From: Alphaproteobacteria bacterium
Lineage (GTDB): Bacteria > Pseudomonadota > Alphaproteobacteria > CACIAM-22H2
DNA: 34,977 bases
NCBI GenBank assembly: GCA_016869915.1
Contig: VGDA01000002.1
Span: 1-34,977 of the forward strand
Direction of reading: 5' to 3'
Part shown: positions 1,926 to 34,977 of the stretch, one piece after another
Layout of the letters: each line of letters starts with the position of its first letter
Numbering within the stretch: position 1 is the stretch's first letter
Program-made: the position numbers and the translations under genes
The notes under the pieces: model-generated
What the model was told of the DNA's origin: nothing
Database searches by the model: none
What the model saw: only the letters and a program-made list of their open reading frames with translations

Positions 1926-1929
1926 CCCA

Positions 1930-3876: not shown

Positions 3877-3898
3877 CGCCGCACCGGAGCAGAGCGAC

Positions 3899-4960
3899 AT
3901 GCGCAACGCCACCACCCTCACCCTGCTCGCCGGCGCCGCCATGGCGAGCGCCGTCGTCGCGTACCTGCTCGCGCCGGCGGGAGACCCGGCGGAGATACGG
4001 CTCGGCGAGCGCATCTTCCCCGAGCTCGCCGGCCGTGCCGCGGAGGTCGCGACCATCGAGATGCAGCGCCCCGACGGGCCGGTGGTGATCCGGCGCGAGG
4101 GCGAGCGCTGGATCCTGCCGGAGTCCGCCGGCTACCAGGCGGACGGCGCGCGGATCCGCCAGCTCTTCTTCGAGGTGTCCGAGCTGCGCACGCTCGAGGC
4201 CAAGACCCGCAGCAAGGATGTCTATCCGTCCCTCGAGCTGGAGGACCGCGACGCGCCGGGCGCGAAGTCGACGCGCGTCGCCTTCCGCGACGCGCAGGGC
4301 AAGGAGGTCGTCGCGCTGCTCGCCGGCAAGAACCGCTTCGGGCGCGGCGGCGGCGGCGAGGACGCGGTCTACGTGCGTCGCGCGGGCGACGCGCAGGCCT
4401 GGCTCGCGCGCGGCCGCCTCACGGTCGGCCGCGACGCGCTGCAATGGATGGAGCGCGAGGTGGCGAATGTCGCGCGCGAACGCGTGCGCGTCGCCACGAT
4501 CCGCCACGCCGACGGCGCGACCACCGAGGTCTCGAAGCCGTCGCCCGCCGAGCGCGACTTCGTGCTCGCCGGCGTCCCGGAGGACCGCAAGCCGAAGTCG
4601 AACTGGGAGATCGGGAGCGTCGCAGCGGTGTTCGAACGCCTCGACCTCGAGGACGTGCGCAAGGCCGAGGGCTTCCCGGCAGGCGGCACCGTGGCTACGG
4701 TCTCCACCTTCGACGGGCTCGAGGTGTCGGCCCGGCTGGTGGAGATCGAAGGTGTGTTCTGGGCCGCGATCTCGGCCCGCGCGGAGCCCCCGGCGCAACT
4801 GCCGGAAGGCGGCACGGGCCTCAAGGCGGCGGACGAGGTGAAGGCCGAGGCGGACGCGATCTCCCGCCGCGCCGCGCCCTGGATCTACCGGCTGCCGATC
4901 TTCAACCTCGAGAACATGCGACGCAAGGTCGATGACCTGCTGGAGGCGAAGGAGGGCTGA
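3899..4960 (+). CDS. DUF4340-like membrane-anchored protein
   Basis: 353-aa ORF with a single N-terminal TM (TLTLLAGAAMASAVVAYLLA). Lies directly downstream of the GldG-like gene, where I recall DUF4340 proteins commonly sitting. No catalytic motif recognised. Confidence 0.5.
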   Translation: MRNATTLTLLAGAAMASAVVAYLLAPAGDPAEIRLGERIFPELAGRAAEVATIEMQRPDGPVVIRREGERWILPESAGYQADGARIRQLFFEVSELRTLEAKTRSKDVYPSLELEDRDAPGAKSTRVAFRDAQGKEVVALLAGKNRFGRGGGGEDAVYVRRAGDAQAWLARGRLTVGRDALQWMEREVANVARERVRVATIRHADGATTEVSKPSPAERDFVLAGVPEDRKPKSNWEIGSVAAVFERLDLEDVRKAEGFPAGGTVATVSTFDGLEVSARLVEIEGVFWAAISARAEPPAQLPEGGTGLKAADEVKAEADAISRRAAPWIYRLPIFNLENMRRKVDDLLEAKEG

Positions 4961-7109: not shown

Positions 7110-8138
7110 ATGGGCAGGACGATCCTGGTGACCGGCGGTGCCGGCTATGTCGGCAGCCACTGCGTGGCCGCGCTGCTCGAGGCCGGCCACCGCGTGGTCG
7201 TCTTCGACAACCTGCACCAGGGCCATCGCGAGGCCGTGCTCCCGCAGGCGGAACTCGTGGTCGGCGACCTCGCCGACCGCGACGCGATCGCCGCCGCCTT
7301 CGCCGGCCGACGCTACGATGCGATCATGCATTTCGCCGGCAACATCCAGGTCGGCGAGTCGATGCGCCGCCCCTTCCTCTATCTCGGCGACAACGTGCAG
7401 TGCGCGGTCAACCTGCTCGAGGCAGCCGCCGCCCATGGCGTCTCGCGCTTCGTCTTCTCCTCGACCTGCGCGATCTTCGGCGCCACGGGACGCGCCTCGA
7501 TCGATGAGGACGCGCCGGTCGCGCCGGAGGACGCGCCGGTCGCGCCGGGCAGCCCCTATGGCGAGTCGAAATACCTCGTCGAGCGCATCCTCGCCTGGGC
7601 CGAGCGCGTCCACGGCATCCGCTATGCGATCCTGCGCTACTTCAACGCCTGCGGCGCGCATCCCCACCTGCCGCTCTTCGAGGACCACGACCCGGAGACG
7701 CATCTCATCCCGATCGCGCTCGACTGCGCGCTGGGACGCCGCGAGGAGATGCAGGTCTTCGGTAACGACTACGACACGCCCGACGGCACCTGCCTGCGCG
7801 ACTACGTCCATGTCTGCGACCTCGCGGCGGCGCATCTGCGCGTCCTGGACCGGCTGGACGCGGGCAGCCGCGCCTACAATGTCGGCAGCGGCAACGGGCA
7901 CTCGGTGCGCGAGGTCCTCGACGCCGTGCGCCGCGTGACCGGGGTCGACTTCCCCGTGCGCATGCTGCCGCGACGGCCGGGGGACCTGCCGCGGCTCGTG
8001 GCCGACCCGTCGCGCATCCGCGCCGAGCTCGGCTGGACGCCCCGCTACGCATCGATCGACGAGATCGTCTCCACGGCCTGGCGCTGGCGCCGCGCCCATC
8101 CCGGCGGCTACGCCGAGCTGGCGCGCGCGCGAGGCTGA
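7110..8138 (+). CDS. galE: UDP-glucose 4-epimerase; carries an in-frame 21-bp tandem duplication
   Basis: ILVTGGAGYVGSH Rossmann motif and catalytic SPYGESKY (YxxxK). ATG at 7110 is preceded by aagga. EDAPVAP is repeated twice immediately before GSPYGESK. Confidence 0.9.
   Translation: MGRTILVTGGAGYVGSHCVAALLEAGHRVVVFDNLHQGHREAVLPQAELVVGDLADRDAIAAAFAGRRYDAIMHFAGNIQVGESMRRPFLYLGDNVQCAVNLLEAAAAHGVSRFVFSSTCAIFGATGRASIDEDAPVAPEDAPVAPGSPYGESKYLVERILAWAERVHGIRYAILRYFNACGAHPHLPLFEDHDPETHLIPIALDCALGRREEMQVFGNDYDTPDGTCLRDYVHVCDLAAAHLRVLDRLDAGSRAYNVGSGNGHSVREVLDAVRRVTGVDFPVRMLPRRPGDLPRLVADPSRIRAELGWTPRYASIDEIVSTAWRWRRAHPGGYAELARARG
7506..7547. repeat. Tandem duplication, 21 bp x2, identical (in-frame, galE)
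   Basis: gaggacgcgccggtcgcgccg occurs at 7506-7526 and 7527-7547. Confidence 0.95.
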
Positions 8139-8148
8139 TCCGCGCGCG

Positions 8149-9741
8149 TCAGGCTGCGCTTGCGCCGCCCCCGTCGCGCAGGCTGCGACGCAGCACCTTG
8201 CCCATCGAGTTGCGCGGCAGCGCCGCCACGAACCGGATCTCCTTCGGCGCCTTGTAGCGCGACAGCGACGCGCGGCAGGCCTCGACGAGGTCAGCCTCGC
8301 CCGCGTTCATGCCCTCGCGCAGCGCGACGAAGGCCGTCACCGCCTCGCCCCAGTAGGGATGCGGCAGGCCGACGACGGCGCATTCGCGCACGGCCGGGTG
8401 CGCGAGCAGCACCTCCTCGACCTCGCGCGGATAGACGTTCTCGCCGCCGGTGATGATCATGTCGTTCTTGCGGTCGACGAGGTAGAGGAACCCCTCGTCG
8501 TCCATGCGCGCGAGGTCGCCGGTCACGAACCAGTCGCCGCGCATCGCCTTCGCGGTCGCCTCGGGCATGTTGAGGTAGCCGGAGAACATGTAGGGCGAGG
8601 TGCAGGCGAGCTCGCCCACCTCGCCGCGGGGCAGTTCCGCGCCATCCTCGCCCAGGATCATGACCTGCGTGGCGGGAAGCGGCTGGCCGACGCACTGGAT
8701 CTTGCGGAGCTGGTCGGCGGGGCGCAGCGCGGTGACGATCGACGTCAGCTGGTCGGCGGGGCGCAGCGCGGTGACGATCGACGTCTCCGTGCAGCCATAG
8801 CGCTCGTAGAGCCTGCCCTCGCCGAAGAAGTCGATCACGCGCTCCTTCGTCGACTGCGCGAGCGGCGCGGTGCCCGAGACGACCGCCTTGAGCGACGACA
8901 CGTCGTAGCGCCGCGCGGCATCGCCCATCGCGAAGAGCGCCGCGAAATGCGTCGGCACCATGTAGGTGTTGGTCGCGCGGATCGACTGGATCGTGTCCAT
9001 AATCCGCTCGATGTCGAAGCGCGGCAGCAGCTCGACGAAGCCGCCGAAATGCAGCGGCGTCAGCGTCATCAGGAAGCCCGCGCCATGGAAGAGCGGCGTC
9101 AGCGTGATGGCGCGGTCGTCGGGACCGTAGCAGCCATGGTCGGCGCCGATCGCATAGGCGGAGAGAACGCGCCCGCGATGCGAGAGCATCACGCCCTTGC
9201 CGCGGCCGGTCGAGCCGGAGGTATAGGGGATGGAGAAGACGTCGCTCTCCTGCGTAGGCACCGGGCAGGTCGCGTCCGAGGCCCGCGCGAGCGCGTCCTC
9301 GTAGGCGTCCGACAGCACGACGACATGCGCGACGCAGTCCGGCAGCGCGGCGCGCGCCTTCGCCTCGAGCGAGGGATCGACGAAGATCGCGCGCGCGCCC
9401 GTGTCCTCGCACGCGAAGCGTATCTCGGCCTCGGACGCGGCCGGGCCGATCGTCGCGCAGGCGACGCCCGCGAGCGACGCGCCGCAGACGATCTCGATGT
9501 ACTCGACGCGGTTGGGAAGCAGGACGACGACGCGCTCGCCATGCGCGAGGCCCAGCCCCGCATGGACGAGGTTGGCGACGCGCCTGATCCTCTCGGCAAG
9601 GCGCGCATAGGTGAGACCGCGCCCGCTCTCGCGTATCGCGAGGCGGTCGGGTGTGCGTCGTGCCGCGGACAGGATCCCGTCGGAGATCGTGATCCCGCGC
9701 GAATTCCCCGGCCGCCGCGTCCGCAGGTCCCCGGCGCTCAT
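8149..9741 (-). CDS. AMP-dependent acyl-CoA synthetase/ligase; carries an in-frame 39-bp tandem duplication
   Basis: AMP-binding motifs YTSGSTGRGKGV, YERYGCTE and TGDLARMDDEGFLYLVDRKNDMIITGGENVYPREVE. The likely start MSAGDLR at 9739-9741 overlaps the upstream gene's stop (ATGA). TSIVTALRPADQL is repeated twice. Confidence 0.88.
   Translation of the reverse strand: MSAGDLRTRRPGNSRGITISDGILSAARRTPDRLAIRESGRGLTYARLAERIRRVANLVHAGLGLAHGERVVVLLPNRVEYIEIVCGASLAGVACATIGPAASEAEIRFACEDTGARAIFVDPSLEAKARAALPDCVAHVVVLSDAYEDALARASDATCPVPTQESDVFSIPYTSGSTGRGKGVMLSHRGRVLSAYAIGADHGCYGPDDRAITLTPLFHGAGFLMTLTPLHFGGFVELLPRFDIERIMDTIQSIRATNTYMVPTHFAALFAMGDAARRYDVSSLKAVVSGTAPLAQSTKERVIDFFGEGRLYERYGCTETSIVTALRPADQLTSIVTALRPADQLRKIQCVGQPLPATQVMILGEDGAELPRGEVGELACTSPYMFSGYLNMPEATAKAMRGDWFVTGDLARMDDEGFLYLVDRKNDMIITGGENVYPREVEEVLLAHPAVRECAVVGLPHPYWGEAVTAFVALREGMNAGEADLVEACRASLSRYKAPKEIRFVAALPRNSMGKVLRRSLRDGGGASAA
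8708..8785. repeat. Tandem duplication, 39 bp x2, identical (in-frame, acyl-CoA synthetase)
   Basis: agctggtcggcggggcgcagcgcggtgacgatcgacgtc occurs at 8708-8746 and 8747-8785. Confidence 0.95.
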
Positions 9742-9800
9742 GGTGCGAGGAAGCGCGCGATGGCGGCCGCGCGCTCGTCGGCGGAGCCCGGGCGCTCGAC

Positions 9801-9822
9801 GACCGCATGGCGACCGCATGGC
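9801..9822. repeat. Tandem duplication, 11 bp x2, identical (frame-breaking, 3' end of the double hydrolase gene)
   Basis: gaccgcatggc occurs at 9801-9811 and 9812-9822. Confidence 0.85.
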
Positions 9823-10660: not shown

Positions 10661-10772
10661 GACCGGGTCGCGCGGCGTCTCCTCCAGCCACGCGCCGGTT
10701 CCGTCATAGGCGGGCTGACCGGGTCGCGCGGCGTCTCCTCCAGCCACGCGCCGGTTCCGTCATAGGCGGGCT
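10661..10772. repeat. Tandem duplication, 56 bp x2, identical (frame-breaking, linker of the double hydrolase gene)
   Basis: gaccgggtcgcgcggcgtctcctccagccacgcgccggttccgtcataggcgggct occurs at 10661-10716 and 10717-10772. Confidence 0.97.
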
Positions 10773-11151: not shown

Positions 11152-11457
11152 GCGCGCGGCGAACTCGACGGCGATCGCCGCGCCGGTGTGGTTGCCGTAG
11201 ACCGCGGCGCGCCCGATGCCGAGCGCGGTCAGCGTCTCGGCCATCGCGTCGGCGAAGTCCCGGATCTCCGGCTGGGCGATGTCGAGGCGGTCCGACAGGC
11301 CGAAGCGGGCCGCGAACTCGACCGCGATCGCCGCGCCGGTGTGGTTGCCGTAGGCGGCGGCGCGCCCGATGCCGAGCGCGGTCAGCGTCTCGGCCATCGC
11401 GTCGGCGAAGTCCCGGATCTCCGGCTGGGCGATGTCGAGGCGGTCCGACAGGCCGAA
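11152..11457. repeat. Tandem duplication, 153 bp x2, 5 mismatches (in-frame, 51 aa, first hydrolase domain)
   Basis: 11152-11304 versus 11305-11457. Mismatches at 11155/11308, 11158/11311, 11170/11323, 11201/11354 and 11203/11356. The peptide FGLSDRLDIAQPEIRDFADAMAETLTALGIGRAA(A/V)YGNHTGAAIAVEFAAR occurs twice. Confidence 0.95.
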
Positions 11458-11636
11458 GCCCGGCGTGTCGAAGGCGAGCGCGGTGAAGCGCGTCGCGAAG
11501 ACCTCCTGCTGCATGCGCATGCGCGCCGCCGAGCAGGGCGAGGGATGGAAGAGGCAGACCGCGGGGCCCGACCCGGCGCGCGTGTAGTGCACGCGGCGCT
11601 TGCCGACGGTGACGAAATGGCTGGTGACGCGCGTGC

Positions 11637-14222: not shown

Positions 14223-15432
14223 GTGCCGATCCAGATCCCGTCCGAGGACGACCATCGCGACCTGCGCGACGCCGTGCGGTCGCTCTGCGCGCGCTTCGAC
14301 GGCGCCTACTGGCGGCGCGTCGACGAGGCGCGCGGCTATCCCGAGGAATTCGTCGCCGCGCTGACCGGCGCCGGATGGCTCGCGGCGCTCGTGCCCGAGG
14401 AACATGGCGGCGCGGGTCTCGGCTTGACCGAGGCCTCCATCGTCATGGAGGAGATCAACCGCTCGGGCGGCAACTCGGGCGCGGTCCACGGCCAGATGTA
14501 CAACATGTCGACGCTGCTGCGCGCCGGCTCGCCGGAGCAGAAGGCACGCTACCTGCCGCGCATCGCGTCGGGCGAGCTGCGCCTGCAGTCGATGGCCGTC
14601 ACCGAGCCGACCACGGGCACCGACACGACGAAGCTGCGCACGACCGCGACGCGCCGCGGCGACCGCTGGGTCCTGAACGGCCAGAAGGTCTGGACCTCGC
14701 GCCTGCAGCATTCAGACCTGATGATCGTGCTGGCGCGCACGACGCCGATCGAGCGGGTGCGCAGGAAGTCGGAGGGGCTCTCGGTCTTCCTCGTCGACGT
14801 GCGCGAGGCGCTGGCCGGCGGCATGTCCGTGCGCCCGATCCGCAACATGGTGAACCACGAGACCAACGAGGTCTTCTTCGACGGCGTCGAGATCCCCGGC
14901 GACGCGCTGGTGGGGGAGCAGGATCGCGGCTTCCGCATCATCCTCGAGGGACTGAACGCGGAGCGCGTGCTGATCGCCGCGGAATGCGTCGGCGACGCGT
15001 ACTGGTTCGTCGACCGCGCGCGCGCCTATGCCGGCGAGCGCGTCGTCTTCGACCGGCCGATCGGCCGGAACCGGCGAGCGCGTCGTCTTCGACCGGCCGA
15101 TCGGCCGGAACCAGGGCATCCAGTTCCCGATCGCGCGCGCCTACGTCAACGCGCGCGCCGCAGACGCGATGCGCTACCAGGCGGCTGCGCTGCACGACGC
15201 GGGCCGCCCCTACGGCGCCGAGGCAAACATGGCGAAGCTGCTCTGCGCCGACGCATCCTGGGAGGCGGCGAATGCCTGCCTGCAGACGCATGGCGGCTTC
15301 GGCTTCGCCGCCGAGTACGACATCGAGCGCAAGTTCAGGGAGACCCGGCTCTACCAGGTCGCCCCGATCTCGACGAACCTCATCCTCGCCTACGTGGGCG
15401 AGCACGTGCTCGGCATGCCGCGCTCCTACTGA
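14223..15432 (+). pseudogene. Acyl-CoA dehydrogenase; frame broken as written by a 40-bp tandem duplication
   Basis: GTG at 14223 with GAGGG upstream. The N-terminal and middle domains lie in the frame of ORF 14010-15518 (...AYAGERVVFDRPIGRN). The C-terminal domain lies in ORF 15028-15432 (GERVVFDRPIGRNQGIQFPIA...HGGFGFAAEYDIERKFRETRLYQVAP...). GERVVFDRPIGRN is shared at the repeat. Confidence 0.85.
15031..15110. repeat. Tandem duplication, 40 bp x2, identical (frame-breaking, acyl-CoA dehydrogenase)
   Basis: ccggcgagcgcgtcgtcttcgaccggccgatcggccggaa occurs at 15031-15070 and 15071-15110. Confidence 0.97.
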
Positions 15433-15447
15433 GCGCGGCCGCGCCGC

Positions 15448-16566
15448 TCAGGTCTCCAGCGCCTTGGCCGGGTCCTCGAACGCCTCGCCCAGCGCCGCGG
15501 CCACCGCCGCGTGCGTGATCCTGCCGCCATGGACGTTGAGGCCGTTGCGCAGGTGCGGGTCCTCGGCCAGCGCGCGCATCGCGCCCTTGTCCGCAAGCGC
15601 CAGCACGTAGGGCAGCGTCGCGTTGTTGAGCGCGACGGCCGAGGTGCGCGGCACGCCGCCCGGCATGTTCGTCACGCAATAGTGGATGACGTCGTCGACG
15701 ACGTAGGTCGGCTCGTCATGCGTGGTCGGGCGCGAGGTCTCGAAGCAGCCGCCCTGGTCGATGGCGACGTCGACGACGACGGAGCCCGGCTTCATCCGCC
15801 GGATGAGGTCGGCGCCGACCAGCCTCGGCGCCGCGGCGCCGGGGATCAGCACCCCGCCGATGACGAGGTCGGCCGCGGCGACGTGCTGCTCGACCGCGTC
15901 GCGGGTCGAGAACACGGTGTTGAGCGGCCGGTCGAACTGGGTCCAGAGGCGGCGCAGCACGTCGACGCTGCGGTCGAGCACCCAGACATCCGCGCCCATG
16001 CCGAGCGCGATGTGGACGGCGTGCGTGCCCACCACGCCGCCGCCCAGCACGACGACCTTCGCGGGATCGACGCCGGGCACGCCGCCGAGCAGCATGCCGA
16101 GGCCGCCATGCGCCTTCTCCAGGAAATAGGCGCCGACCTGGATCGACATCCGTCCCGCGACCTCGGACATCGGCGCGAGCAGCGGCAGCCCTCCGGATGG
16201 CGAGGTCACCGTCTCGTAGGCGATGCAGGTCGCGCCGCTGCGCATGAGGTCGTGCGCCTGCGCCGGGTCGGGCGCGAGGTGCAGGTAGGTGAACAGGACC
16301 TGCCCGCGCCGCAGCATCGCGCGCTCCGCGGCCAGCGGCTCCTTCACCTTCACGATCATGTCGGCCGCGGCGAACACCGAGGCGGCATCGGCCGCGATCC
16401 GCGCGCCCGCCGCCTCGTAGTGTGCGTCGGTCATGCCGATGCCGGCGCCGGCGCCGCGCTCGACGACGACCTGGTGGCCATGCGCGACGACCTCGCGGAC
16501 ATTCGTGGGCGTGAGCCCCACCCTGTACTCGCGGACCTTGATCTCCTTCGGAACGCCGATGAGCAT
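15448..16566 (-). CDS. ald: Alanine dehydrogenase
   Basis: [21 protein letters not shown]-terminus, [16 protein letters not shown]-binding motif and [10 protein letters not shown] prefer the start at 16564-16566. Confidence 0.92.
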
Positions 16567-16623
16567 GGGACCTCCCAGGGGCAGAGCTGCCTCGATACTA
16601 TCCCGCCAGCATGGGGTGTTCAC

Positions 16624-17423
16624 GTGACCAAAGCGTTGCGAGGCGCCATCTACCCAGACCTCGAGGGCAAGGCCGTTCTGGTCACGGGCGGCGGCTCGGG
16701 CATTGGCGCCGCCATCGTCCGCGCCTTCGCCCGGCAGAAGGCCCTCGTGGGCTTCGTCGACGTCAAGCGCGCGGAGTCCGAGGCCCTCGTCGCGGAACTG
16801 CGCGCCGGCGGCGCGCGGGTCGCCTTCGCGCCGGCGGCGCGCGGGTCGCCTTCGCGCAGGCCGACATCACCGACACGGCCGCCCTGCGCGCGGCGATCGC
16901 GGCGCTGCGCGCCGAGATCGGCGCCTTCGCGGTGCTGGTCAACAACGCGGCGCACGACGAGCGCCACCGGACCGAGGACGTGACCCCGGAATACTGGGAC
17001 CAGCGCATCGCGGTGAACCTCAAGCACCAGTTCTTCGCCGCGCAGGCCGTCCTGCCCGACATGAAGGCCGCGGGCGCCGGCGCGATCGTCAATTTCGGCT
17101 CCACCTCCTGGATGGCGGGCCAGGGCGGCATGGCGGCCTACACGGCGGCCAAGTCCGCTGTCCTCGGCCTCACCCGGTCGCTTGCCCGCGACTACGGGCC
17201 GCATGGCATCCGCGTGAACGCCATCGCGCCGGGCTGGATCATGACCGAACGGCAGGTCTCGCTCTGGCTGACCCCGGAGGGCGAGGCGGAGCTGATGCGC
17301 AGGCAATGCCTGAAGCGCAAGCTGGCCCCGGACGAGGTGGCGCGCTTCACCGTCTTCCTCGCCTCCGAGGAGGCCTCGGCCTGCACCGCCCAGCACTACG
17401 TGGTCGACGGCGGCTGGACCTGA
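16624..17423 (+). pseudogene. Short-chain dehydrogenase/reductase (SDR); frame broken as written by a 26-bp tandem duplication
   Basis: GTG at 16624. The N-terminus VLVTGGGSGIGAAIV...AGGARVAF lies at the tail of ORF 15511-16983. The remainder (AGGARVAFAQADITD...NNAA...YTAAK...VVDGGWT) lies in ORF 16611-17423, in a different frame. Confidence 0.85.
16802..16853. repeat. Tandem duplication, 26 bp x2, identical (frame-breaking, SDR)
   Basis: gcgccggcggcgcgcgggtcgccttc occurs at 16802-16827 and 16828-16853. Confidence 0.93.
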
Positions 17424-19992: not shown

Positions 19993-20046
19993 CCTCAGGC
20001 ACGACAATGCCGGCGGCCACCTCAGGCACGACAATGCCGGCGGCCA
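19993..20046. repeat. Tandem duplication, 27 bp x2, identical (intergenic, upstream of the ABC binding-protein gene)
   Basis: cctcaggcacgacaatgccggcggcca occurs at 19993-20019 and 20020-20046. It ends about 28 nt before the ATG at 20074. Confidence 0.95.
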
Positions 20047-21307: not shown

Positions 21308-22531
21308 ATGAGCGCCGACGTCGAACTCGACCGGGTGACGATCCGCTTCGGGTCGTTCACGGCCGTCAGGGATGCCTCGCTGAAGATCGCCGGCGGCGAG
21401 TTCTTCAGCCTCCTCGGGCCTTCCGGCTGCGGGAAGACCACCCTCCTGCGCACCATCTCCGGGTTCCTCGACCCGTCCGAGGGCAGCGTGCGCATCGGCG
21501 GCGAGGACATGCGCGGCATCGAGCCCAACCGGCGCCCGACCGCGCTCATCTTCCAGAACCTCGCGCTCTTCCCGCTGATGACCGTGGCCGACAACATCGC
21601 CTACGGGCTCAGGGTGCGCGGCGTCCCGCGCGCGCAGCGCATGGCGCGCGCGGCGGAGCTGCTGTCGCTCGTCGCGCTGCCGGACCAGGGACACAAGCGC
21701 GTGAGCGAGCTGTCCGGCGGCCAGAAGCAGCGCGTGGCGATCGCGCGCGCGCTCGCCGTCGAGCCCAAGGTCCTGCTCCTCGACGAGCCGCTCTCCGCGC
21801 TCGACCTCAAGCTGCGCCAGCACATGCGCAACGAGCTGCGCGCGATCCAGAAGCGCGTAGGCATCACCTTCATCTACATCACGCACGACCAGGGCGAGGC
21901 CCTGACCATGTCCGACCGCATCGCTGTCATGAACCACGGGGTGGTCGAGCAGGTGGGCACGGGGCGCGAGATCTACGCGGACCCGCGCACGCCCTTCGTC
22001 GCCTCCTTCTTCATCTACATCACCCACGACCAGGGCGAGGCCCTGACCATGTCCGACCGCATCGCGGTCATGAACCACGGGGTGGTCGAGCAGGTGGGCA
22101 CGGGGCGCGAGATCTACGCGGACCCGCGCACGCCCTTCGTCGCCTCCTTCGTCGGCGAGAACAACGGCATCGAGGGGCGCATCGCAAGCGTCGACGGCGC
22201 GCGCGCGGCGATCGACACGCCGCTCGGCCGCCTCGTCGGCCGCCGCGGCGAGGGCGCGGCGGCTGGCCGCGCCGGCACGATCTTCGTGCGGCCGGAGAGC
22301 CTGCGCGTCGCCGCGCCCGGCACGGATGCCGCGCTCGCGGCGGAGATCGTCTCCACTGCCTTCGAGGGCAGCACGACGCATGTCTTCCTGCGCGCCGCCA
22401 GCGGGCAGGCGCTCACCATGACCGTCGACATGCGCGAGGCCGCCACGCTGCCCGCGCCGGGCGCGACGCTCCGCCTCTCCTGCGACGAGGGCGAGGCCAT
22501 CGTGCTGGCCACCGACGGCAAGGGCGCATGA
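21308..22531 (+). CDS. ABC transporter ATP-binding protein (PotA-like); carries an in-frame 141-bp tandem duplication
   Basis: Walker A GPSGCGKTT, signature LSGGQKQRVAIARAL, Walker B LLLDEPLSALD. The 47-aa block FIYITHDQGEALTMSDRIAVMNHGVVEQVGTGREIYADPRTPFVASF (H-loop onward) is present twice. Confidence 0.85.
   Translation: MSADVELDRVTIRFGSFTAVRDASLKIAGGEFFSLLGPSGCGKTTLLRTISGFLDPSEGSVRIGGEDMRGIEPNRRPTALIFQNLALFPLMTVADNIAYGLRVRGVPRAQRMARAAELLSLVALPDQGHKRVSELSGGQKQRVAIARALAVEPKVLLLDEPLSALDLKLRQHMRNELRAIQKRVGITFIYITHDQGEALTMSDRIAVMNHGVVEQVGTGREIYADPRTPFVASFFIYITHDQGEALTMSDRIAVMNHGVVEQVGTGREIYADPRTPFVASFVGENNGIEGRIASVDGARAAIDTPLGRLVGRRGEGAAAGRAGTIFVRPESLRVAAPGTDAALAAEIVSTAFEGSTTHVFLRAASGQALTMTVDMREAATLPAPGATLRLSCDEGEAIVLATDGKGA
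21869..22150. repeat. Tandem duplication, 141 bp x2, 2 mismatches (in-frame, 47 aa, PotA-like ATPase)
   Basis: 21869-22009 versus 22010-22150. Mismatches at 21883/22024 (acg/acc, Thr) and 21925/22066 (gct/gcg, Ala). Confidence 0.97.
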
Positions 22532-27777: not shown

Positions 27778-27854
27778 ACCTTGCAAGGCTGCGCGGCGGG
27801 GATTAACCCCTCGCGGGCGGGCGCCATGCCCGCGACGCCGAGGAGAGACACCAC

Positions 27855-28491
27855 ATGCGCTTGCGCCCAGCCTCCGCCGCCATCGCCCTCGCGGCCACGG
27901 CCTTCCTCGTGCTCGCGGCACCCGCCCCGCCATGGCGGGAAATCCGCTCGACGACTCGGCTGCCTGCGCCGGCTCCCTGATCGGCAACGCCACGGCGGAT
28001 CTCTCGCAGGGGCGCGAGGACCGGTTCGACGAGGGCGTCGACCTCGCCTATGCCGGCTACCTCACCCATGTCTTCGCGGCCAAGGGCGCGTACAAGCAGG
28101 CCGACCTCGAGCTCGCCGACAAGATCCTCGCCATCAACACCGACCGCGTCATCTCTCGCAGGGCCGCGAGGACCGCTTCGACGAGGGCGTCGACCTCGCC
28201 TATGCCGGCTACCTCACCCATGTCTTCGCGGCCAAGGGCGCGTACAAGCAGGCCGACCTCGAGCTCGCCGACAAGATCCTCGCCATCAACACCGACCGCG
28301 TCATCGAGGCCGCGAATTCCAATGCCTTCGACGCCGAGGTCTACGAGCAGATCGTCGCCTGCTCGCAGTTCCTCGCGCTCCAGGTCATGCGCAACGCGGC
28401 CGTCTACGCCGACAACGCCAAGCGCATCGCCGCGCTCTCGGCCGACAACAAGAACCGCATCCGCAGGCTGGTGAAGGCCGGCCGCCGCTGA
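27855..28491 (+). pseudogene. Hypothetical (probably secreted) small protein; disrupted as written by a 152-bp tandem duplication and possibly a 1-nt indel after the signal peptide
   Basis: ATG at 27855 has a strong aggaga SD and encodes signal-like MRLRPASAAIALAATAFLVLAAPAP, but this frame stops at about 27980. The mature part MAGNPLDDSAACAG...DRFDEGVDLAYAGYL... starts at 27932 in another frame with no SD. It then shifts frame again at the 152-bp repeat and finishes in ORF 27781-28491. Confidence 0.45.
27999..28302. repeat. Tandem duplication, 152 bp x2, 2 mismatches (frame-breaking, hypothetical secreted protein)
   Basis: 27999-28150 versus 28151-28302. Mismatches at 28012/28164 (ggg/ggc) and 28024/28176 (cgg/cgc). 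Confidence 0.97.
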
Positions 28492-28503: not shown

Positions 28504-29538
28504 TCAGCTGCGCCAGGGCAGGACGCGGCCGGTGACGACGACGTGCTGGCCCTGGGTGACGCGCGCCGCCCAGGCCTGGGCGATGACGATGCCGTCGACG
28601 CCCGCGCGCACCGGCCAGGGCTCCATGTCGATGCGCTCGAAGTCGTGGATCCAGCCGACCACGTCGCCCGCCTTCACGGCGCTGCCACAGGCGATCGCCT
28701 CCTCGTAGAGGCCGCCGAAGGGCGCGACGGAGAAGCAGGCGCGGTCGACCATCGCGACCTTGCGCTGCGTGCCGTCGCGATGGTGGTCGATCTTCTCGAT
28801 GCGCCCGCCCAGCTGGCCATGGCGGATGGCGGCGGCGAGGACGCCCTGGCGGCCCCACCGCACGCCATTCGCCTGCACGGCCTCGCCCCAGCCGAGCTCG
28901 GTGCCGACGGTGACCTTGCCGAGGCGCTCGGCCTCGGAAGGCAGCAGCCCGGGTGTCTCGTTCTGGTAGCTCATCACCAGCGGCGTGCCGAACCAGCGCG
29001 CGGTCTCCTCGATGTCGCGCGCCTGCGCCGGGTCCTCGACCTCGTGGAAGCTCGCGACCTGCGCGAAGCGGGTGCCGCCGCCGGAATGGAGGTCGATGAC
29101 GACATGGACATGCGGCCAGATCGCCTCGCGCACGAAGGCGGCGATGCGGTGCGTGATGCCGGCGAGCGCCGGCGTCCGGCCCGCGCCCTCGATGAAGGCG
29201 CGGTTGAGGTTCACGCCGTCGTCGGCGCGCGATTCGCGGGTGCCGGCGCGGAAGGCCGGCGGGTTCAGCACCGGCACGAGGATGACGCGTCCCTCGACGT
29301 CCGCGACGTCGATCTCGCGCTGGAGGCGGTGCAGGACGACCGGCCCCTCGTACTCGTTGCCGTGGTTGGAGCCGAAGGCGACGAGCCCCCTGCCCGGCCG
29401 CGCGCGCGGCCCGACGAACACGGTGAGCGGGACGAGGTGGTCGCCCCAGATCGAGTCATGCTCGAGCGCGACCCAGTAGTCGCGCCTGCCGCGCGTCTCG
29501 AGGTCCAGCTGCTGCGGCTTGACGATCGGGCGGTCCAT
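28504..29538 (-). CDS. Succinylglutamate desuccinylase/aspartoacylase (AstE/AspA) family zinc deacylase
   Basis: 344-aa ORF with GSNHGNEYEG (HxxE zinc site), NLNRAF and DLHSGG motifs. Confidence 0.8.
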   Translation of the reverse strand: MDRPIVKPQQLDLETRGRRDYWVALEHDSIWGDHLVPLTVFVGPRARPGRGLVAFGSNHGNEYEGPVVLHRLQREIDVADVEGRVILVPVLNPPAFRAGTRESRADDGVNLNRAFIEGAGRTPALAGITHRIAAFVREAIWPHVHVVIDLHSGGGTRFAQVASFHEVEDPAQARDIEETARWFGTPLVMSYQNETPGLLPSEAERLGKVTVGTELGWGEAVQANGVRWGRQGVLAAAIRHGQLGGRIEKIDHHRDGTQRKVAMVDRACFSVAPFGGLYEEAIACGSAVKAGDVVGWIHDFERIDMEPWPVRAGVDGIVIAQAWAARVTQGQHVVVTGRVLPWRS

Positions 29539-29548
29539 GGCTCGCTCC

Positions 29549-30721
29549 TCAGTTGACGCGATGCGCGCGGATGAAGTCCTCGTCGACGCCGACGCCGATG
29601 CCGACCGCGTCCGGGATCGCGACGGTCCCGTCCGCCTCGAGGCGGAAGGGCTGCGTGGTGATCCCCCGCGTGAGCAGGCTCTGGCTGACGTTGAACTCGA
29701 CGAAGCGCGCGCGCGGCAGGGTTGCGAGCAGTTGCAGGCTGTAGCCGGTCAGCAGGTGCGTGAGCCAGGAATGCGGCACGAGGTCGATGCCCGCCTCCTG
29801 CGCGAGCTGGGCCACGCGCCGGGCGACCGTGATGCCTCCGCAGCGCGACAGGTCCGGCTGGACCACGTCGACGCAGCCCTGCCGGATGAAGCGCTCGAAC
29901 TCCCAGTGCGTCGCGACCTGCTCGCCCGCGGCGATCGGCACCGGCGAGTTGGCGCGCACCCAGGCATATTGCTCGAAATCCTCGGGATGGATGAAGTCCT
30001 CGACCCAGCCGACGCCGTGGGCGGCGAGCCACTCGCACATGGCCAGGGCCTCGCGCCGCGAGCGCGGCTCCCCCCAGCGCTTCCATCCCGCCGGATACCA
30101 GCCGGGATCGACGAGCAGCGCGCGATCGGGCCCCAGCGCCTCGCGCGCGGCGGCGACGAGCTCGCGGTCGCGGCCGGGATCCTCGCCGAACACGCCCCAG
30201 CCGAACTTCACGGCGCGGAAGCCCCGCGCGACATAGCCAAGCGCCGCCTCGCGCATGCCGTCGGGCGTCTCGCGGAACAGCGTCGAGGCATAGGCGACCA
30301 CGCTTTCGCGGCGCCTGCCGCCGAGCAGCGCGGCCAGCGGCATGCCTGCCGCCTGCGCGCGGATCGACCAGAGGCAGTTGTCGATCGCCGACATGCACTG
30401 CATGGCAAGGCCGCGGCGACCGTAATAGGCGCTGCCCACGTACATGCGGTCCCAGAGCCGCTCCACTTGCAGCGGATCCTCGCCGACCAGCATCTCGGAG
30501 AGCGTGCGGAAGCCGAGGATCGACATGCCCTGCCCGGCGATCACCGCGACCGCGGCCGGCGCGAGCGTCTCGACATCGGCCCAGCCGACCAGTCCCTCGT
30601 CGGTCGCGACGCGCACGACGAGCTGCCAGTCGCCGTTGTCGCTCGCCTCCTCGCCGCCGGCGGAGGCGCCATAGCCCTGCTGGCCGCGCAGCAGGATCGG
30701 CTCCACCGCGACGATCCTCAT
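29549..30721 (-). CDS. Enolase-superfamily enzyme (mandelate racemase / muconate lactonizing enzyme family)
   Basis: Start MRIVAVEPILL at 30719-30721 (ATGA overlap with the upstream gene). Shows a capping-domain plus barrel pattern with LLVDPG, WVEDF, AAGEQ and DVVQPDLSRCGGIT motifs. Confidence 0.8.
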   Translation of the reverse strand: MRIVAVEPILLRGQQGYGASAGGEEASDNGDWQLVVRVATDEGLVGWADVETLAPAAVAVIAGQGMSILGFRTLSEMLVGEDPLQVERLWDRMYVGSAYYGRRGLAMQCMSAIDNCLWSIRAQAAGMPLAALLGGRRRESVVAYASTLFRETPDGMREAALGYVARGFRAVKFGWGVFGEDPGRDRELVAAAREALGPDRALLVDPGWYPAGWKRWGEPRSRREALAMCEWLAAHGVGWVEDFIHPEDFEQYAWVRANSPVPIAAGEQVATHWEFERFIRQGCVDVVQPDLSRCGGITVARRVAQLAQEAGIDLVPHSWLTHLLTGYSLQLLATLPRARFVEFNVSQSLLTRGITTQPFRLEADGTVAIPDAVGIGVGVDEDFIRAHRVN

Positions 30722-32139
30722 GGCGCCGGCGACGCCATCATGAGGTCCGAGGCGAGGCGCACCGCCTCGCGCGTCAGCGCAGCTGCCGCCTCCGGCGCAT
30801 AGGGCGTCGCCCACTCCACCTCGTAGCCGCTGGAGCGGAAATCCTCGGCGTTGGGGACGTAGCCGTCCCAGCCATTGGTGTAGCCGCCGAAATGCAGGAA
30901 GGGCGCGGCGTCGGAGGCGCGGATGTCGGCGCCGATGCGCGCGAAGGGCTCGAGCGGCGCGCCAACGAGCACCGCGTCGCCGATGCGCGTGGCGTGCAGC
31001 TCGATGTCGACCGCGCGGCGATTGGCGCAGAAACGGCCCCAATGCGCGCCCATCTGCGCGCGCTTGGCGCGGAAATTGGCGGCCGCGAGCTCCGCCGGCG
31101 TGGCGACCGAGCGGTCGATGGCGCGCACGGCCGCGGTCGCGGCCTCGGACTGCGCGTCTAGCTCGTCGACGTCGCCATAGGCGCGCACGGGCAGCGCGAT
31201 GCGGCGGCTCTCCACGGCGAGGACCTGGGGCGCGGAAGGCAACTCGTCGTCGACCCAGATGCCGAGCGGCGCGCCGGACTCGACGACATGGTCGAAGCGC
31301 TTGCGGATCCGGCGCGTCGAGAGGCCGATGGCGACGCGCGCGGCGTCGAGGCCGATCTCCGTGCCCATGCGCCGCGGCGCGTCACGGTCGGCGACCAGGG
31401 CCTCGCGCGGGATCTGGTCGCCCGCGCAGCCCTGCAGGAAGAGGCAGTGCCCGCCGACGGACTGCTCGACGATGCGCTTGAGATGGCCGGGATAGTCGGG
31501 GCTCACGAGGCGGTTCCCGTGCGCGAGCACGATCGGATGGGTCCCGTATCCGACGATGGTCGCGATCGGCCGGCCGTCGAGCGCGTCGATCCTGAGGACG
31601 CTGAGGACGGGGTCGCGGTATCCGTCCCAGTTCTGCGACACGACCACGCGTCCGTCGGGAAGCGCGAGGCGGCGGTTCACCGTCACCTCGCTGCGCCCGT
31701 AGCCCGAGGCGCTGCGCGCCGGGCGCAGCGCGGCGCGAGCGGCGCGCGCGGCCTCGCGCAGCGCGTCGAGCACCTTCGCGCGATAGGCGGGCACGAGCTC
31801 CATGCCGGGAAGCTGCGCCTGCGTGCCGAAGCCATGCGTCGCCCAGGGCGGCCCGGAATGCGTGTGGGTGAAGGACAGCCGCACATGCTCCGGCGCGAGG
31901 CCGAGCTCCTCGCCGACCACGGCGCGCAGCTCGCGGCTCTCCTCGCTCGACATCAGCAGGAAGTCGAGGTCGACGATCGACGCGCGCACGCCGCCCTGCT
32001 CGAGCAGCAGGATCGTGGCCAGCAGCGGCAGGTCGATGCCCTCCGCGCGGTCATGCGTGCGCGCGCCCCAGTTGACATGCGCGATCCCTATCGGCGGCGT
32101 CATGTCCGCGCGGCCGGCGCCGGCCATGAGATGCGTCAT
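30718..32139 (-). CDS. Neutral/alkaline ceramidase-like N-terminal-domain hydrolase
   Basis: Start MTHLMAGAGRADMTPPIG at 32137-32139 with GGAGG upstream. FTHTHSGP and LQGCAGDQIP motifs resemble the neutral ceramidase zinc site. This is the C-terminal part of the spurious 1401-aa ORF. Confidence 0.6.
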   Translation of the reverse strand: MTHLMAGAGRADMTPPIGIAHVNWGARTHDRAEGIDLPLLATILLLEQGGVRASIVDLDFLLMSSEESRELRAVVGEELGLAPEHVRLSFTHTHSGPPWATHGFGTQAQLPGMELVPAYRAKVLDALREAARAARAALRPARSASGYGRSEVTVNRRLALPDGRVVVSQNWDGYRDPVLSVLRIDALDGRPIATIVGYGTHPIVLAHGNRLVSPDYPGHLKRIVEQSVGGHCLFLQGCAGDQIPREALVADRDAPRRMGTEIGLDAARVAIGLSTRRIRKRFDHVVESGAPLGIWVDDELPSAPQVLAVESRRIALPVRAYGDVDELDAQSEAATAAVRAIDRSVATPAELAAANFRAKRAQMGAHWGRFCANRRAVDIELHATRIGDAVLVGAPLEPFARIGADIRASDAAPFLHFGGYTNGWDGYVPNAEDFRSSGYEVEWATPYAPEAAAALTREAVRLASDLMMASPAP

Positions 32140-33935
32140 GGCGTCCTCCCCTTCTTCTTCTCGCGTGCCATCCTTGCCAGTGGCAGGACGAGGTCGTCGG
32201 GCGTCGTGCAGGGCGTGGCGCCCGCCGCGGCGATGTCGGCCGAGACGTCCACGGGCAGCGACGTGTTCGAGTTCTGCGGCACCTGGTTGAGGCGCCCACC
32301 GATGAAGACGGGGATCTGCAGCCCGGCCTCGCGCATTGCCGCGCGCAGCGCCTGCATGTAGTCGAGGGCGACACCGTTGTAGGTCGAGAGCGCGATCGCG
32401 TCGGCCCGGCTCGCGCGCGCCTTCGCGACGAGGTTCGCCGGGTCCGCATGCACGCCCGCGTCGACGATCCCGACGCCGACGCCTCGCAGGATCTCCTCGA
32501 TCAGGATCTTCCCGTATTCGTGGACGTCGGTGCAGGCGACGACCGCGCTCAGGCCGGCGCCCGAGAGGTCCGCGCGCATCGCCGGATCGAAGCCGCGGAT
32601 CTTCTTCTCGGCGGCGCGGGCGAGCGCCGTCATCGTCGTCGAGGGTACGTACGGCCTGCGCCCGCGTGGCGCCGCCGCGTCCTCGACGCCCGGCCCGTAG
32701 AGCTCCTCGAGGCGCTTCGGGCCGATGCGCCGGATGGCGAGCAGGAGCTCGAAGGCGTCGTCGGTGCGGATGCCGGCCTCGCGCAAGCCGGAGAGCACGC
32801 GGTCGCGGAAGCGCTCGCCGCCGGCGACGATCGCGTCGGCGATGGCGTCGGTGCGCGGCAGGTCGACCATCGGCAGCCAGAGCTCCGACTGCTCGACGAG
32901 CTTGGCGCAGACGAGCTGGACGTCGATCACCTCGTCGATGTCGGGGATGCGCACGCCCTCGGTGATCGGCACGGGATTGATCGCGTGGCCCGAGGGCATC
33001 AGCCGCTGGCCCAGCGCGTCGGCGAGCAGGTAGGCGCTGAGCCCGCCGTAGTTGGAGACGCGGTCGGCCTCGTAGACCACGGTGTTGCCGTAGATCATCG
33101 TGCCCGGCACCGCCTCGCGGCCGCGCGCCAGCGCGCGCTGGAAGGCAAGCCGCGTCGCCGGGTCGGTGAAGGTGTTGCCGAAGCAGTGCGAGAGGCGCCC
33201 GCCGAGCAGGTCCTCGACGACATGGCGCTCGAGCAGCGCGGCGCCGAACGTGCAGGACAGGTCCGTGAAGAGCGGCGCGAAGCCGTCGAAGCCGTCGTCG
33301 AGGTTCGAGTGGATCAGCACCTCGACCGGCTGCGCGGCCATGAGCGCCAGCGCCTCGACCGTCGCCTCGGTCGTCGCGACGTCGTCGTGCCACTCGGGAA
33401 GGCGGAAGGTGAAGTACTGGCCGAGATTGCCGACCGATGTCGCGCCGGCGGCGAGCGCGGCGACGGTGTTCTCCACCGCCGAGGGCATGCCGATCACGAA
33501 GTCCCCGAAATGCGGGGCCACCGGTGCCTCGGAGGTGAGCGCGACGAAGTCCTCGACGCCCTCGAGGATCATGCCGGTGCCGCGCCCGCGCTCGGCGCGG
33601 CTGGCGGCGGGATGGCCCATCGACCAGTCGAGGCAGATGCCGTAGCGGTCGACGCGCAACCCCTGGCGGTCGAGCGCGTTCCAGATCTCGAACCACGCGC
33701 GGCGGCTCTTCGACTTGTCCCGGAAGCCGATCTGCGCGTGCTGCATGATCGCGCCCCCGGCCATGCGCCTGCGCTTGTACTCGGCCTCCGAGGGCACGTC
33801 GTGGTGGGACAGGAACCTGCCGCGCGCCACCTGGGCGACGCGCGCGAGCGCGCGGCCGCGCGCGACGACCTCGCCGCAATCCGGCAGCGCGGCCTCGGGC
33901 AGGACCTCGGCGCGCGCGAGGGGACGGGCCGCCAT
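32136..33935 (-). CDS. Fused cobalamin-dependent mutase-like protein (N-terminal glutamate-mutase-E-like barrel plus C-terminal B12-binding domain)
   Basis: 599-aa ORF. The C-terminal ~138 aa carry the canonical B12 motifs DVHEYG (DxHxxG, 32511-32528), LSTYNG (SxL-like) and VFIGGRL (GG). The N-terminal ~430 aa show patchy resemblance to the glutamate mutase epsilon subunit by recollection (AIMQHAQIGF, GMILEGVEDF, AAGATSVGNLGQYFTFRLP). Confidence 0.65.
   Translation of the reverse strand: MAARPLARAEVLPEAALPDCGEVVARGRALARVAQVARGRFLSHHDVPSEAEYKRRRMAGGAIMQHAQIGFRDKSKSRRAWFEIWNALDRQGLRVDRYGICLDWSMGHPAASRAERGRGTGMILEGVEDFVALTSEAPVAPHFGDFVIGMPSAVENTVAALAAGATSVGNLGQYFTFRLPEWHDDVATTEATVEALALMAAQPVEVLIHSNLDDGFDGFAPLFTDLSCTFGAALLERHVVEDLLGGRLSHCFGNTFTDPATRLAFQRALARGREAVPGTMIYGNTVVYEADRVSNYGGLSAYLLADALGQRLMPSGHAINPVPITEGVRIPDIDEVIDVQLVCAKLVEQSELWLPMVDLPRTDAIADAIVAGGERFRDRVLSGLREAGIRTDDAFELLLAIRRIGPKRLEELYGPGVEDAAAPRGRRPYVPSTTMTALARAAEKKIRGFDPAMRADLSGAGLSAVVACTDVHEYGKILIEEILRGVGVGIVDAGVHADPANLVAKARASRADAIALSTYNGVALDYMQALRAAMREAGLQIPVFIGGRLNQVPQNSNTSLPVDVSADIAAAGATPCTTPDDLVLPLARMAREKKKGRTP
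33279..33296. repeat. Tandem duplication, 9 bp x2 (in-frame DGF-DGF in the B12 protein); may be natural
   Basis: gaagccgtc occurs at 33279-33287 and 33288-33296. It is short enough to be a native sequence feature. Confidence 0.5.
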
Positions 33936-33938
33936 GCC

Positions 33939-34977
33939 TCAGAACCGCGAGCCGGTCGCCGGCACCGGCCCGATCCTGAATCCCTCGGGCAGCGGGTCGT
34001 CGTGGTCCAGGACGAAGTTGTGGAAGCCCGTGATCCAGGCCCGGCCCTCGACCCGTGGCACGACATAGGTGATGCCGCCGCGCGTCTCGGCGCGGATCGG
34101 CGTGCCGGTGAAGTACGTGCCGAGCACGCCCTCGAAGCGGCGCGACTGGCCGAGCGCGATCTCGCCGCGCCCGTGCAGGAGCGCGGTGCGCGCCGAGGTG
34201 CCGGTGCCGCAGGGGCTGCGGTCGAGCGATCCCGGCGGGCAGAGGATCGTCTGCCGGTAGTCGCCCGTCGTCGTGCGCGCCGAGGTGAAGAGCACCTGGT
34301 AGCAGACGTCGATGTCCGGACGCTCCGGATGGACGACCTTCAGCTGCTCGCCGACCGCGGCGCGGATGCGCCGCCAGGCGGAGATCAGCGCCGCGTCGTT
34401 GTGCGGGCTCAGCTCCAGGCCGATCGCGTCGGCGTCGACGAAGCAGTAGAAGTCGCCGCCATAGGCGATGTCGACGAGGATGCGGCCGATGCCCTCCACC
34501 TCGAGCGGCGCGGCGCGCATGAGCTCGAAGCTCTCGACGTTGTCGAAGTACGTTGTCGAAGTAGACGGAGCGCGGCGCGCCGCCGGAGACCCGCACGTGG
34601 CAGGTGACGAGGCCGGCCGGCGTGTCGAAGCGCACCACCGTCTCGGGCTCGACGACGGGCACCATCCCGGTCGCGACGACGGTCGTCGCCGTGCCGATGA
34701 TGCAGTGGCCGCACATCGGCACGTACTCGTCCTGCTCCATGATGACGACGGAGAAATCCGCGCCCGGGCCCTGCGGGGGCAGGAGCAGGACCGAGCACAT
34801 CATGCCGCTGCCGCGCGGCTCGAAGTTGAGCATGCGTCGCAGCGCGTCGTCGTTGCGCCAGAGCCAGGCGCGCTTGTCGAGGAGCGTCGCGCCGGGCGGG
34901 ACCGGGACGCCACCGACGATCACGCGCGTCGGGTTGCCCTCCGTGTGGGAGTCGACGGTGTTGATGGTACGCCGGAA
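33939..34977 (-). pseudogene. Proline racemase family enzyme (Cys/Cys type: proline racemase or 4-hydroxyproline 2-epimerase); 5' end outside the window; frame broken as written by a 13-bp tandem duplication
   Basis: The N-terminal part (...TINTVDSHTEGNPTRVIVGG...EYVPMCGHCIIG...RSVYFDN) is the head of ORF 30718-34923. The C-terminal part is ORF 33939-34520 (...LDRSPCGTGTSAR...). Catalytic Cys codons are at 34711-34713 and 34209-34211. Confidence 0.85.
34538..34563. repeat. Tandem duplication, 13 bp x2, identical (frame-breaking, proline racemase family gene)
   Basis: cgttgtcgaagta occurs at 34538-34550 and 34551-34563. Confidence 0.9.

Follow-up and report, generated by a model that had tools for sequence, protein, structure and literature searches.

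Adenosylcobalamin-dependent reactions form a short list that grows very slowly. Class I cobalamin (B12) mutases are recognized by a (beta/alpha)8 substrate barrel associated with a Rossmann-type B12 domain that carries the motifs DxHxxG, SxL and GG. The described systems closest to the gene analysed here are glutamate mutase (GlmE and GlmS; 1CCW, 1I9C, 6H9E), the aminomutases KamDE and OraSE (1XRS, 8T0V, 3KP1) and the alpha subunit of methylmalonyl-CoA mutase (1REQ, 6OXD). B12 mutases that combine the barrel and the B12 domain in one chain are no exception: the 2-methyleneglutarate mutase of Eubacterium barkeri, a Firmicute enzyme of nicotinate fermentation, is a single polypeptide of about 614 residues with a C-terminal DxHxxG B12 domain. 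The gene in question lies at positions 32136..33935, on the minus strand, of a 34,977-nucleotide stretch of alphaproteobacterial DNA (contig VGDA01000002.1, positions 1 to 34,977; the window). Its product resembles the E. barkeri enzyme in size and architecture; organism and pathway differ. An earlier note, made from the DNA sequence alone, had described this product as a glutamate-mutase-E-like barrel fused to a cobalamin domain, encoded in an operon with an epimerase and presumably acting on a substrate other than glutamate. Our analysis favours the view that it represents a new family of radical enzymes that use adenosylcobalamin and act on an amino or imino acid; the substrate is most likely a proline-type compound.

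Domain architecture and fold of the encoded protein

A real open reading frame (ORF) runs from ATG to TGA, and its codon-position GC (GC3 0.96, in a window of 72% GC) is typical of a genuine gene. It specifies 599 residues in this record and 596 in nature, as explained below. The C-terminal part (residues 462–599; 32139..32552, minus strand) is a Rossmann-type B12-binding domain according to Pfam, NCBIfam, PDB and fold matches. Pfam PF02310 matched residues 468–549 (E 8.6e-11, 42.2 bits for a cut-off of 32.1), and a PDB sequence search returned the B12 domains of MetH, of the 2yxb mutase and of GlmS; corrinoid proteins and acyl-CoA mutases were also among the NCBIfam and PDB sequence matches to this stretch. 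The DxHxxG motif, D470-V-H472-E-Y-G475, is encoded at 32511..32528 (minus strand, coordinates computed from the ORF), exactly where the earlier note had placed it. The other two elements that the note had pointed out are also present: in the alignment, L516-S-T-Y-N-G521 (32373..32390, minus strand) is the SxL-type motif, and G546-G547 (32295..32300, minus strand), within the VFIGGRL of residues 543–549, is the invariant GG motif. The B12 half of a Class I mutase was thus found with its full signature (the conserved residues including S517-T518), and the barrel half at the level of the fold only. His472 is predicted from the sequence to be the lower axial cobalt ligand. The core of the original reading, one polypeptide with a base-off/His-on B12 domain behind a TIM barrel, holds.

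The N-terminal part (residues 1 to about 390; 32766..33935, minus strand) gave no Pfam, NCBIfam or PDB profile match, either with the whole protein or with a 32-member profile; the B12 domain was the only domain found, and residues 1–430 were left uncovered by all of these searches. A full-length AlphaFold2 model (pLDDT 91.4, pTM 0.92) contained eight beta-alpha units up to residue 330 or so, two long helices up to about 386, four short helices, and the Rossmann domain from about 462. In the model, the four short helices form a helical linker between barrel and Rossmann domain (residues about 391–461; 32553..32765, minus strand). When the full-length model was compared with the PDB by Foldseek, the best match was the fused methylmalonyl-CoA mutase alpha subunit (E 8e-14, TMq 0.50), which has the same barrel–linker–B12 order, followed by OraE, GlmE and MetH fragments. 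Methylmalonyl-CoA mutase and OraE also have the barrel and the B12 domain in one chain. Because this ranking was dominated by the two-domain architecture, residues 1–395 were modelled alone (pLDDT 91.7). The top matches of the isolated barrel were then GlmE (6h9e_B and 1cb7_B, E 1.5e-7, template modelling (TM) score 0.63, 425 columns, 13% identity), and the next were KamD (8t0v_A, 9q1a_C and 1xrs_A, E 1e-6 to 1.4e-5, TM 0.57–0.60). All top five (two GlmE, three KamD) are adenosylcobalamin isomerase barrels; the sixth, at 5e-4, was a generic barrel, and the top 50 contained no barrel of the pterin-binding, MtaB, MttB or UroD type. Methylmalonyl-CoA mutase barrels came only at about 1.5e-3, and the protein differs from that enzyme also in having no CoA-binding family match and no MeaB-type GTPase gene nearby. 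Judged by the model, the barrel appears about equally close to KamD and to GlmE. The proposal of a GlmE-like barrel fused to a cobalamin domain is therefore borne out at the level of the fold.

The likeness to GlmE does not extend to sequence families. The three stretches that the earlier note had aligned with GlmE are present and collinear (residues 62–71, 121–130 and 162–180 against GlmE 60–69, 120–129 and 163–181, the GlmE sequence being checked with 1cb7_B), but only 5 of the 39 positions are identical. Pfam PF06368 (GlmE) did not match the protein or 28 of its relatives even at E ≤ 1, the NCBIfam model for methylaspartate mutase subunit E gave no match, and none of the Pfam families of GlmE, KamD or methylmalonyl-CoA mutase was matched at E ≤ 1 by any superfamily member tested. 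Family profiles (A1, A2 and the more diverse A5) compared by hhalign with GlmE alone or with a 17-member GlmE profile (A3) gave probabilities below 1%; this GlmE profile is shallow, all homologues retrieved being at least 78% identical. The best hhalign segment, non-significant, aligned residues 56–90 with GlmE 54–88, in the register of the first of the three stretches, and placed the invariant Gln68 opposite GlmE Arg66, a residue of the arginine claw. A MAFFT merge with the GlmE family came out of register and was discarded, leaving GlmE Arg66, Arg100, Arg149, Glu171 and Tyr181 unmapped. With so few identities and a non-significant profile comparison, the resemblance to GlmE is fold-level only and the protein lies outside the GlmE family, although it is likely to work in the manner of the B12-mutase barrels and probably descended from their lineage.

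These results bear on whether the protein could be a genuine fused E–S glutamate mutase, converting L-glutamate to 3-methylaspartate. GlmE is the best fold match of the barrel, the B12 domain matches GlmS and is of the base-off/His-on type, and an enolase-superfamily gene lies two genes downstream; methylaspartase is itself an enolase-superfamily enzyme. However, the chain is fused and 13% identical to GlmE, no family model of methylaspartate mutase E is matched, and in the sole register suggested, which is non-significant, a glutamine faces the claw arginine. In addition, the enolase-type gene, with MR_MLE domains, resembles acid-sugar dehydratases and not methylaspartase, the window contains no glmL or mal gene, and the conserved partner of the family is a paralogue of pyrroline-5-carboxylate (P5C) reductase. 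We consider a glutamate mutase highly improbable, and the view that the substrate differs from glutamate very likely correct.

A second candidate is an aminomutase of the lysine 5,6- or ornithine 4,5- kind, which would shift an amino group along a diamino acid with the help of pyridoxal 5'-phosphate (PLP). KamD is the second-best fold match of the barrel, OraE, in which a barrel and a Rossmann B12 domain likewise share one chain, matches the full-length model well, and class-III aminotransferase genes lie beside some divergent members of the family. In these aminomutases the PLP lysine is found 11 residues after the cobalt-ligating histidine (His133beta and Lys144beta, His618 and Lys629; PMC3958899). 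The residue 11 positions after His472 is Leu483, a conserved hydrophobic position, which makes a PLP-dependent aminomutase unlikely; furthermore, no lysine is conserved across the superfamily, no small subunit is present and no aminomutase Pfam family is matched. Taken together, this candidate is given little credence.

Finally, the protein might bind B12 without catalysis, as a sensor, a light receptor or a cofactor carrier. Similar B12 domains occur in CarH-type regulators, and 8jbt was among the weak fold matches. A barrel of 390 residues, with more than 60 invariant residues lining the typical active-site end, is hardly expected of such a protein, no DNA-binding or signalling domain was found, and the gene stands in an operon with enzyme genes. 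This is the least probable of the alternatives considered.

Spread of the family, partner gene and accessory genes

Among 5.8 billion proteins, 1657 relatives were found, of which the best 120 were inspected. These were mostly full-length (about 590 residues), with 53–60% identity or higher, and their database names were 'cobalamin-dependent protein' or, wrongly, 'methylmalonyl-CoA mutase cobalamin-binding subunit'. No paper describing the family was found in a literature search. In an alignment of 32 relatives, D470, V471, H472, E473, G475, K476, T518, G546 and G547 were invariant, as were more than 60 positions of the N-terminal part, including H66, Q68, R72, R97, C101, D103, H142, D145, N170, Q173, R178, H209, S210, N211, D213, D217, H250, C251, Y282, H317, N320 and E326.

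The barrel was also compared by phmmer with 1.84 billion cluster representatives (E ≤ 0.001). The 344 clusters (50% identity) obtained contained family members only, with no bridge to GlmE. Many of them are full-length fusions of 584–597 residues, at identities down to 22–25%. The polar positions conserved throughout this superfamily reduce to R113, D145, D217, D225, E236, N295 and E326. The motif D-x-H-x-x-[G/A/S] was present in all 24 fused members aligned, down to 22% identity; a loss of the histidine in homologues, which the earlier note had named as evidence against its proposal, was therefore not seen.

When one genome per species was scanned, relatives were found in 355 species, mostly Alphaproteobacteria. 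The other hosts are Holophagaceae and other Acidobacteriota, Anaerolineae/Chloroflexota, Gemmatimonadota, Gammaproteobacteria and several lineages of Asgard archaea; two hosts are cultured, Tistlia consotensis USBA 355 and Pacificispira spongiicola KN72. In some genomes two or more paralogues of the family stand side by side (L014, 2458–6044; L016), which suggests that substrate specificity has diversified.

Clustering of the neighbouring ORFs without bias, across 82 loci, yielded one dominant partner, a protein of about 255 residues of the P5C-reductase family. About 58 of 84 loci had a gene of this type at a distance of up to 10 kb; in about 50 of the 84 it came immediately after the mutase-like gene, on the same strand and often overlapping its stop codon. 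The partner scored 128–140 bits on ProC models whose cut-offs are 197–254; it is therefore a paralogue of P5C reductase and not ProC itself. It retains a T-P-G-G-[I/V]-T-type motif, which we take to be the proline-binding loop of P5C reductases. Five Asgard metagenome-assembled genomes (L019, L026, L042, L047 and L051; Hodarchaeota, Promethearchaeota, Heimdallarchaeota and Hermodarchaeota) also carry the pair, followed by ABC-2 transporter genes. Their mutase-like proteins are 49–52% identical to the alphaproteobacterial one, which points to lateral spread of a two-gene module. The remaining neighbours in the family are mixed (PhyH-type oxygenases, amidases, short-chain dehydrogenases/reductases, M24 peptidases, ornithine-cyclodeaminase-like proteins and the N-demethylation genes described below), a composition typical of amino-acid and compatible-solute catabolism.

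GlmL-family proteins accompany adenosylcobalamin mutases, and the NCBIfam models define them as accessory proteins of methylaspartate mutase and of ornithine degradation. A GlmL/MutL gene was directly beside divergent members of the family in three of six informative loci (L087, L090 and L091). Relative P0299 (32% identical, L087) reads through into GlmL/MutL (NCBIfam accessory_GlmL, E 2.4e-44; Pfam MutL, PF13941), and in the loci of P0295 and P0259 a MutL gene lies immediately upstream. In two other loci of the six (L089 and L093), a hydantoinase_A-type ATPase gene adjoins P0310 and P0267; that of P0310 also carries a faint MutL match. The P0335 locus has neither type of gene, and one further contig was too short to be informative. 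The P0299 ORF (L087, 2692–5726, a contig from a long-read metagenome) was called as a single protein of 857 residues, its frame running into GlmL/MutL and then into out-of-frame sequence; this call probably reflects a frameshift in the assembly rather than a real fusion of three domains.

Cofactor and candidate reaction

The most serious competitor is a methylcobalamin-type corrinoid methyltransferase, in which the barrel would demethylate an N-methylated osmolyte such as proline betaine or glycine betaine and pass the methyl group to the Co(I) of its own B12 domain, in the manner of CmuA or MtgB/MtgC. The B12 domain scores at least as well on MetH and corrinoid proteins as on mutase domains, weak alignments reach about 40–90 residues upstream of the Rossmann fold, into the region of the MetH cap, and the MetH fragments returned by full-length Foldseek contain folate and cobalamin domains. 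Invariant residues of the barrel (H209, H250, C251 and C101) could bind zinc. At locus L002, the divergent neighbour of the family member P0063 is a non-pyrrolysine MttB-family gene (8353–9801), the only such case seen. The isolated barrel, however, matched GlmE and KamD best, with no methyltransferase barrel in the top 50, and neither the cap family PF02607 nor a methyltransferase family was matched at E ≤ 1. The methyltransferase-type corrinoid partner that the earlier note had listed as a possible refutation thus received no support from fold or family searches. GlmL/MutL genes flank sister subfamilies, and the conserved P5C-reductase partner has no role in methyl transfer. As the MttB adjacency was seen in one genome only, the methyltransferase was kept as a rival only, and we regard it as unlikely.

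The preference for a radical enzyme over a methyltransferase comes mainly from the GlmL/MutL genes of the sister subfamilies and from the fold result. The adenosylcobalamin radical enzyme that we favour would hold its cofactor between the barrel and the Rossmann domain, and substrate binding would trigger homolysis of the Co–C bond. The resulting 5'-deoxyadenosyl radical would abstract a hydrogen atom from the substrate in the barrel, a small amino or imino acid, which would then undergo a 1,2-rearrangement or an elimination before the hydrogen atom is returned. Since the next gene in most genomes encodes a P5C-reductase paralogue, the product is probably a P5C-type cyclic imine, which the partner may reduce with NAD(P)H to a proline-type imino acid. 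The neighbours in the window, a proline-racemase-type epimerase gene before it and three hydrolase- or enolase-type genes after it, again point to catabolism of a proline or hydroxyproline derivative.

The most concrete reaction that can be proposed, tentatively, is the radical dehydration of a 4-hydroxyproline isomer to pyrroline-5-carboxylate. The routes of trans-3-hydroxyproline and of hydroxyectoine follow the same order, a dehydratase and then an imine reductase. In such a scheme, which we consider rather doubtful, the protein would be the first dehydratase known to act on a hydroxylated cyclic imino acid with the help of B12, and the enzyme and its partner together would turn a 4-hydroxyproline isomer into proline, or a related compound such as hydroxyectoine into ectoine. 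The reaction could also be one in which the skeleton of a cyclic imine is rearranged. A precedent for the pairing of the two genes is HypD, a glycyl radical enzyme of proline and hydroxyproline metabolism; the product of HypD is reduced to proline by a P5C reductase whose gene lies nearby (PMC7077986). HypD differs entirely in fold and cofactor, and the functional analogy is hypothetical. HypD is strictly anaerobic; if the proposed dehydration were true, the protein would be its oxygen-tolerant counterpart and, among B12 enzymes of the His-on, GlmE type, the first eliminase.

Several observations weigh against the radical enzyme, or against its acting as a dehydratase. First, the likeness to GlmE and KamD stops at the fold. 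Second, adenosylcobalamin and methylcobalamin domains are indistinguishable by sequence. Third, the window contains no adenosyltransferase, MeaB-type chaperone, reactivase or GlmL gene, the kinds of gene that the earlier note had proposed to look for, and GlmL/MutL genes were seen beside some divergent members only; by tblastn, no GlmL was found within 10 kb in 83 loci of the window's own subfamily. Fourth, the P5C-reductase partner is missing in the window and in its 92%-identical relative L007. Fifth, many loci carry genes of N-demethylation (Rieske, StcD-like and sarcosine-oxidase-like, and MttB once), which are compatible with methyl transfer. Sixth, all B12 eliminases known to us are base-on, and we know of no His-on dehydratase; dehydration of hydroxyproline was also considered to be without precedent in B12 enzymology by the authors of the HypD study (PMC7077986).

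Whatever its reaction, the family is uncharacterised and widespread, belongs to a known kind, the His-on B12 mutases, and is set apart by its reductase partner. No family database includes its catalytic domain, the family extends from freshwater and marine Alphaproteobacteria to Asgard archaea, and the reductase partner is fixed. The existence of two cultured hosts, together with the reductase partner, renders the reaction directly testable. If the product is a pyrroline carboxylate, the family would represent a new reaction class for B12 enzymology, a B12-dependent route in the turnover of proline, hydroxyproline or osmolytes, and a new reason for the B12 demand of aquatic bacteria.

Neighbouring genes and tandem duplications in the window

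The gene is the second of an apparent operon of five translationally coupled genes on the minus strand. Directly upstream is a gene of the proline racemase superfamily (33939..34977), of the Cys/Cys type and thus a racemase or an epimerase (the earlier note had spoken of an epimerase); it runs off the window, and its stop codon lies 3 nucleotides before the ATG of the mutase-like gene. Downstream are a gene for a 473-residue protein with a domain resembling the N-terminal domain of neutral/alkaline ceramidases (30718..32139), whose start overlaps the stop of the mutase-like gene (ATGA), and the enolase-superfamily gene (MR_MLE_N and MR_MLE_C, 390 residues; 29549..30721), with a second ATGA overlap. 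The last gene encodes an AstE/AspA-family deacylase of 344 residues (28504..29538), DoeB-like below the family cut-off. Outside the closest relatives, this arrangement does not recur. The trio of ceramidase-like, enolase and AstE-like genes was considered as a core partner set and rejected, since it was found only in relatives at least 82% identical. Locus L001 combines the arrangement of the window with two proline-racemase paralogues and a P5C reductase gene just upstream.

Two genes of this operon are affected by tandem duplications. A perfect 9-bp duplication (33278..33297) adds DGF (residues 214–216) to the invariant HSNLDDGF of the barrel, exactly at the place where confidence in the model drops; neither the four independent assemblies nor any of the aligned homologues have it. 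In the racemase-type gene, a 13-bp duplication of TACTTCGACAACG (34537..34563), through which YFDNV is read in two frames, causes a frameshift; with one copy removed, a full Pro_racemase match was recovered (E 4.9e-109). Tandem duplications, each of about two copies, number more than a dozen in the window; their periods are 9–153 bp, all but three (96–98% identical) are perfect, and several break reading frames. They lie at 1127–1270, 7506–7548, 8708–8785, 9800–9822, 10661–10772, 11152–11459, 15031–15112, 16801–16861, 19993–20046, 21868–22150 and 27999–28305, in addition to the two just described.

The sequence of the window is contained in about 20 metagenome runs from lake water and other freshwater. 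Assemblies from four such runs were otherwise almost identical to the window and lacked exactly the 9 and the 13 bases; those from two runs also lacked duplications of 21, 11, 39, 56 and 40 bp. The 92%-identical L007 lacked the DGF duplication and one of 152 bp. Because every duplication covered is missing from independent, near-identical assemblies, we conclude that they are artefacts of this record and not biology. The natural mutase-like gene is therefore intact and, without the 9-bp duplication, encodes 596 residues; the natural racemase-type gene is intact as well.

The 152-bp duplication breaks a small gene for a secreted protein (window 27781–28491; 161 residues in L007, region 15358–16900). 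In L007, an extra gene of about 1 kb (348 residues, apparently a secreted hydrolase), which the window does not have, stands between this gene and the AstE-like gene. Farther away, the window contains genes for an amidase, a cupin, an alpha/beta hydrolase, a PotA-type ABC transporter, an HMGL-like lyase, a class-III aminotransferase and a protein of the alanine-dehydrogenase family. At its other end (1119–4960), it encodes an ABC-type system with ABC_transp_aux (GldG-like) and DUF4340 proteins, which is unrelated to the mutase-like gene.

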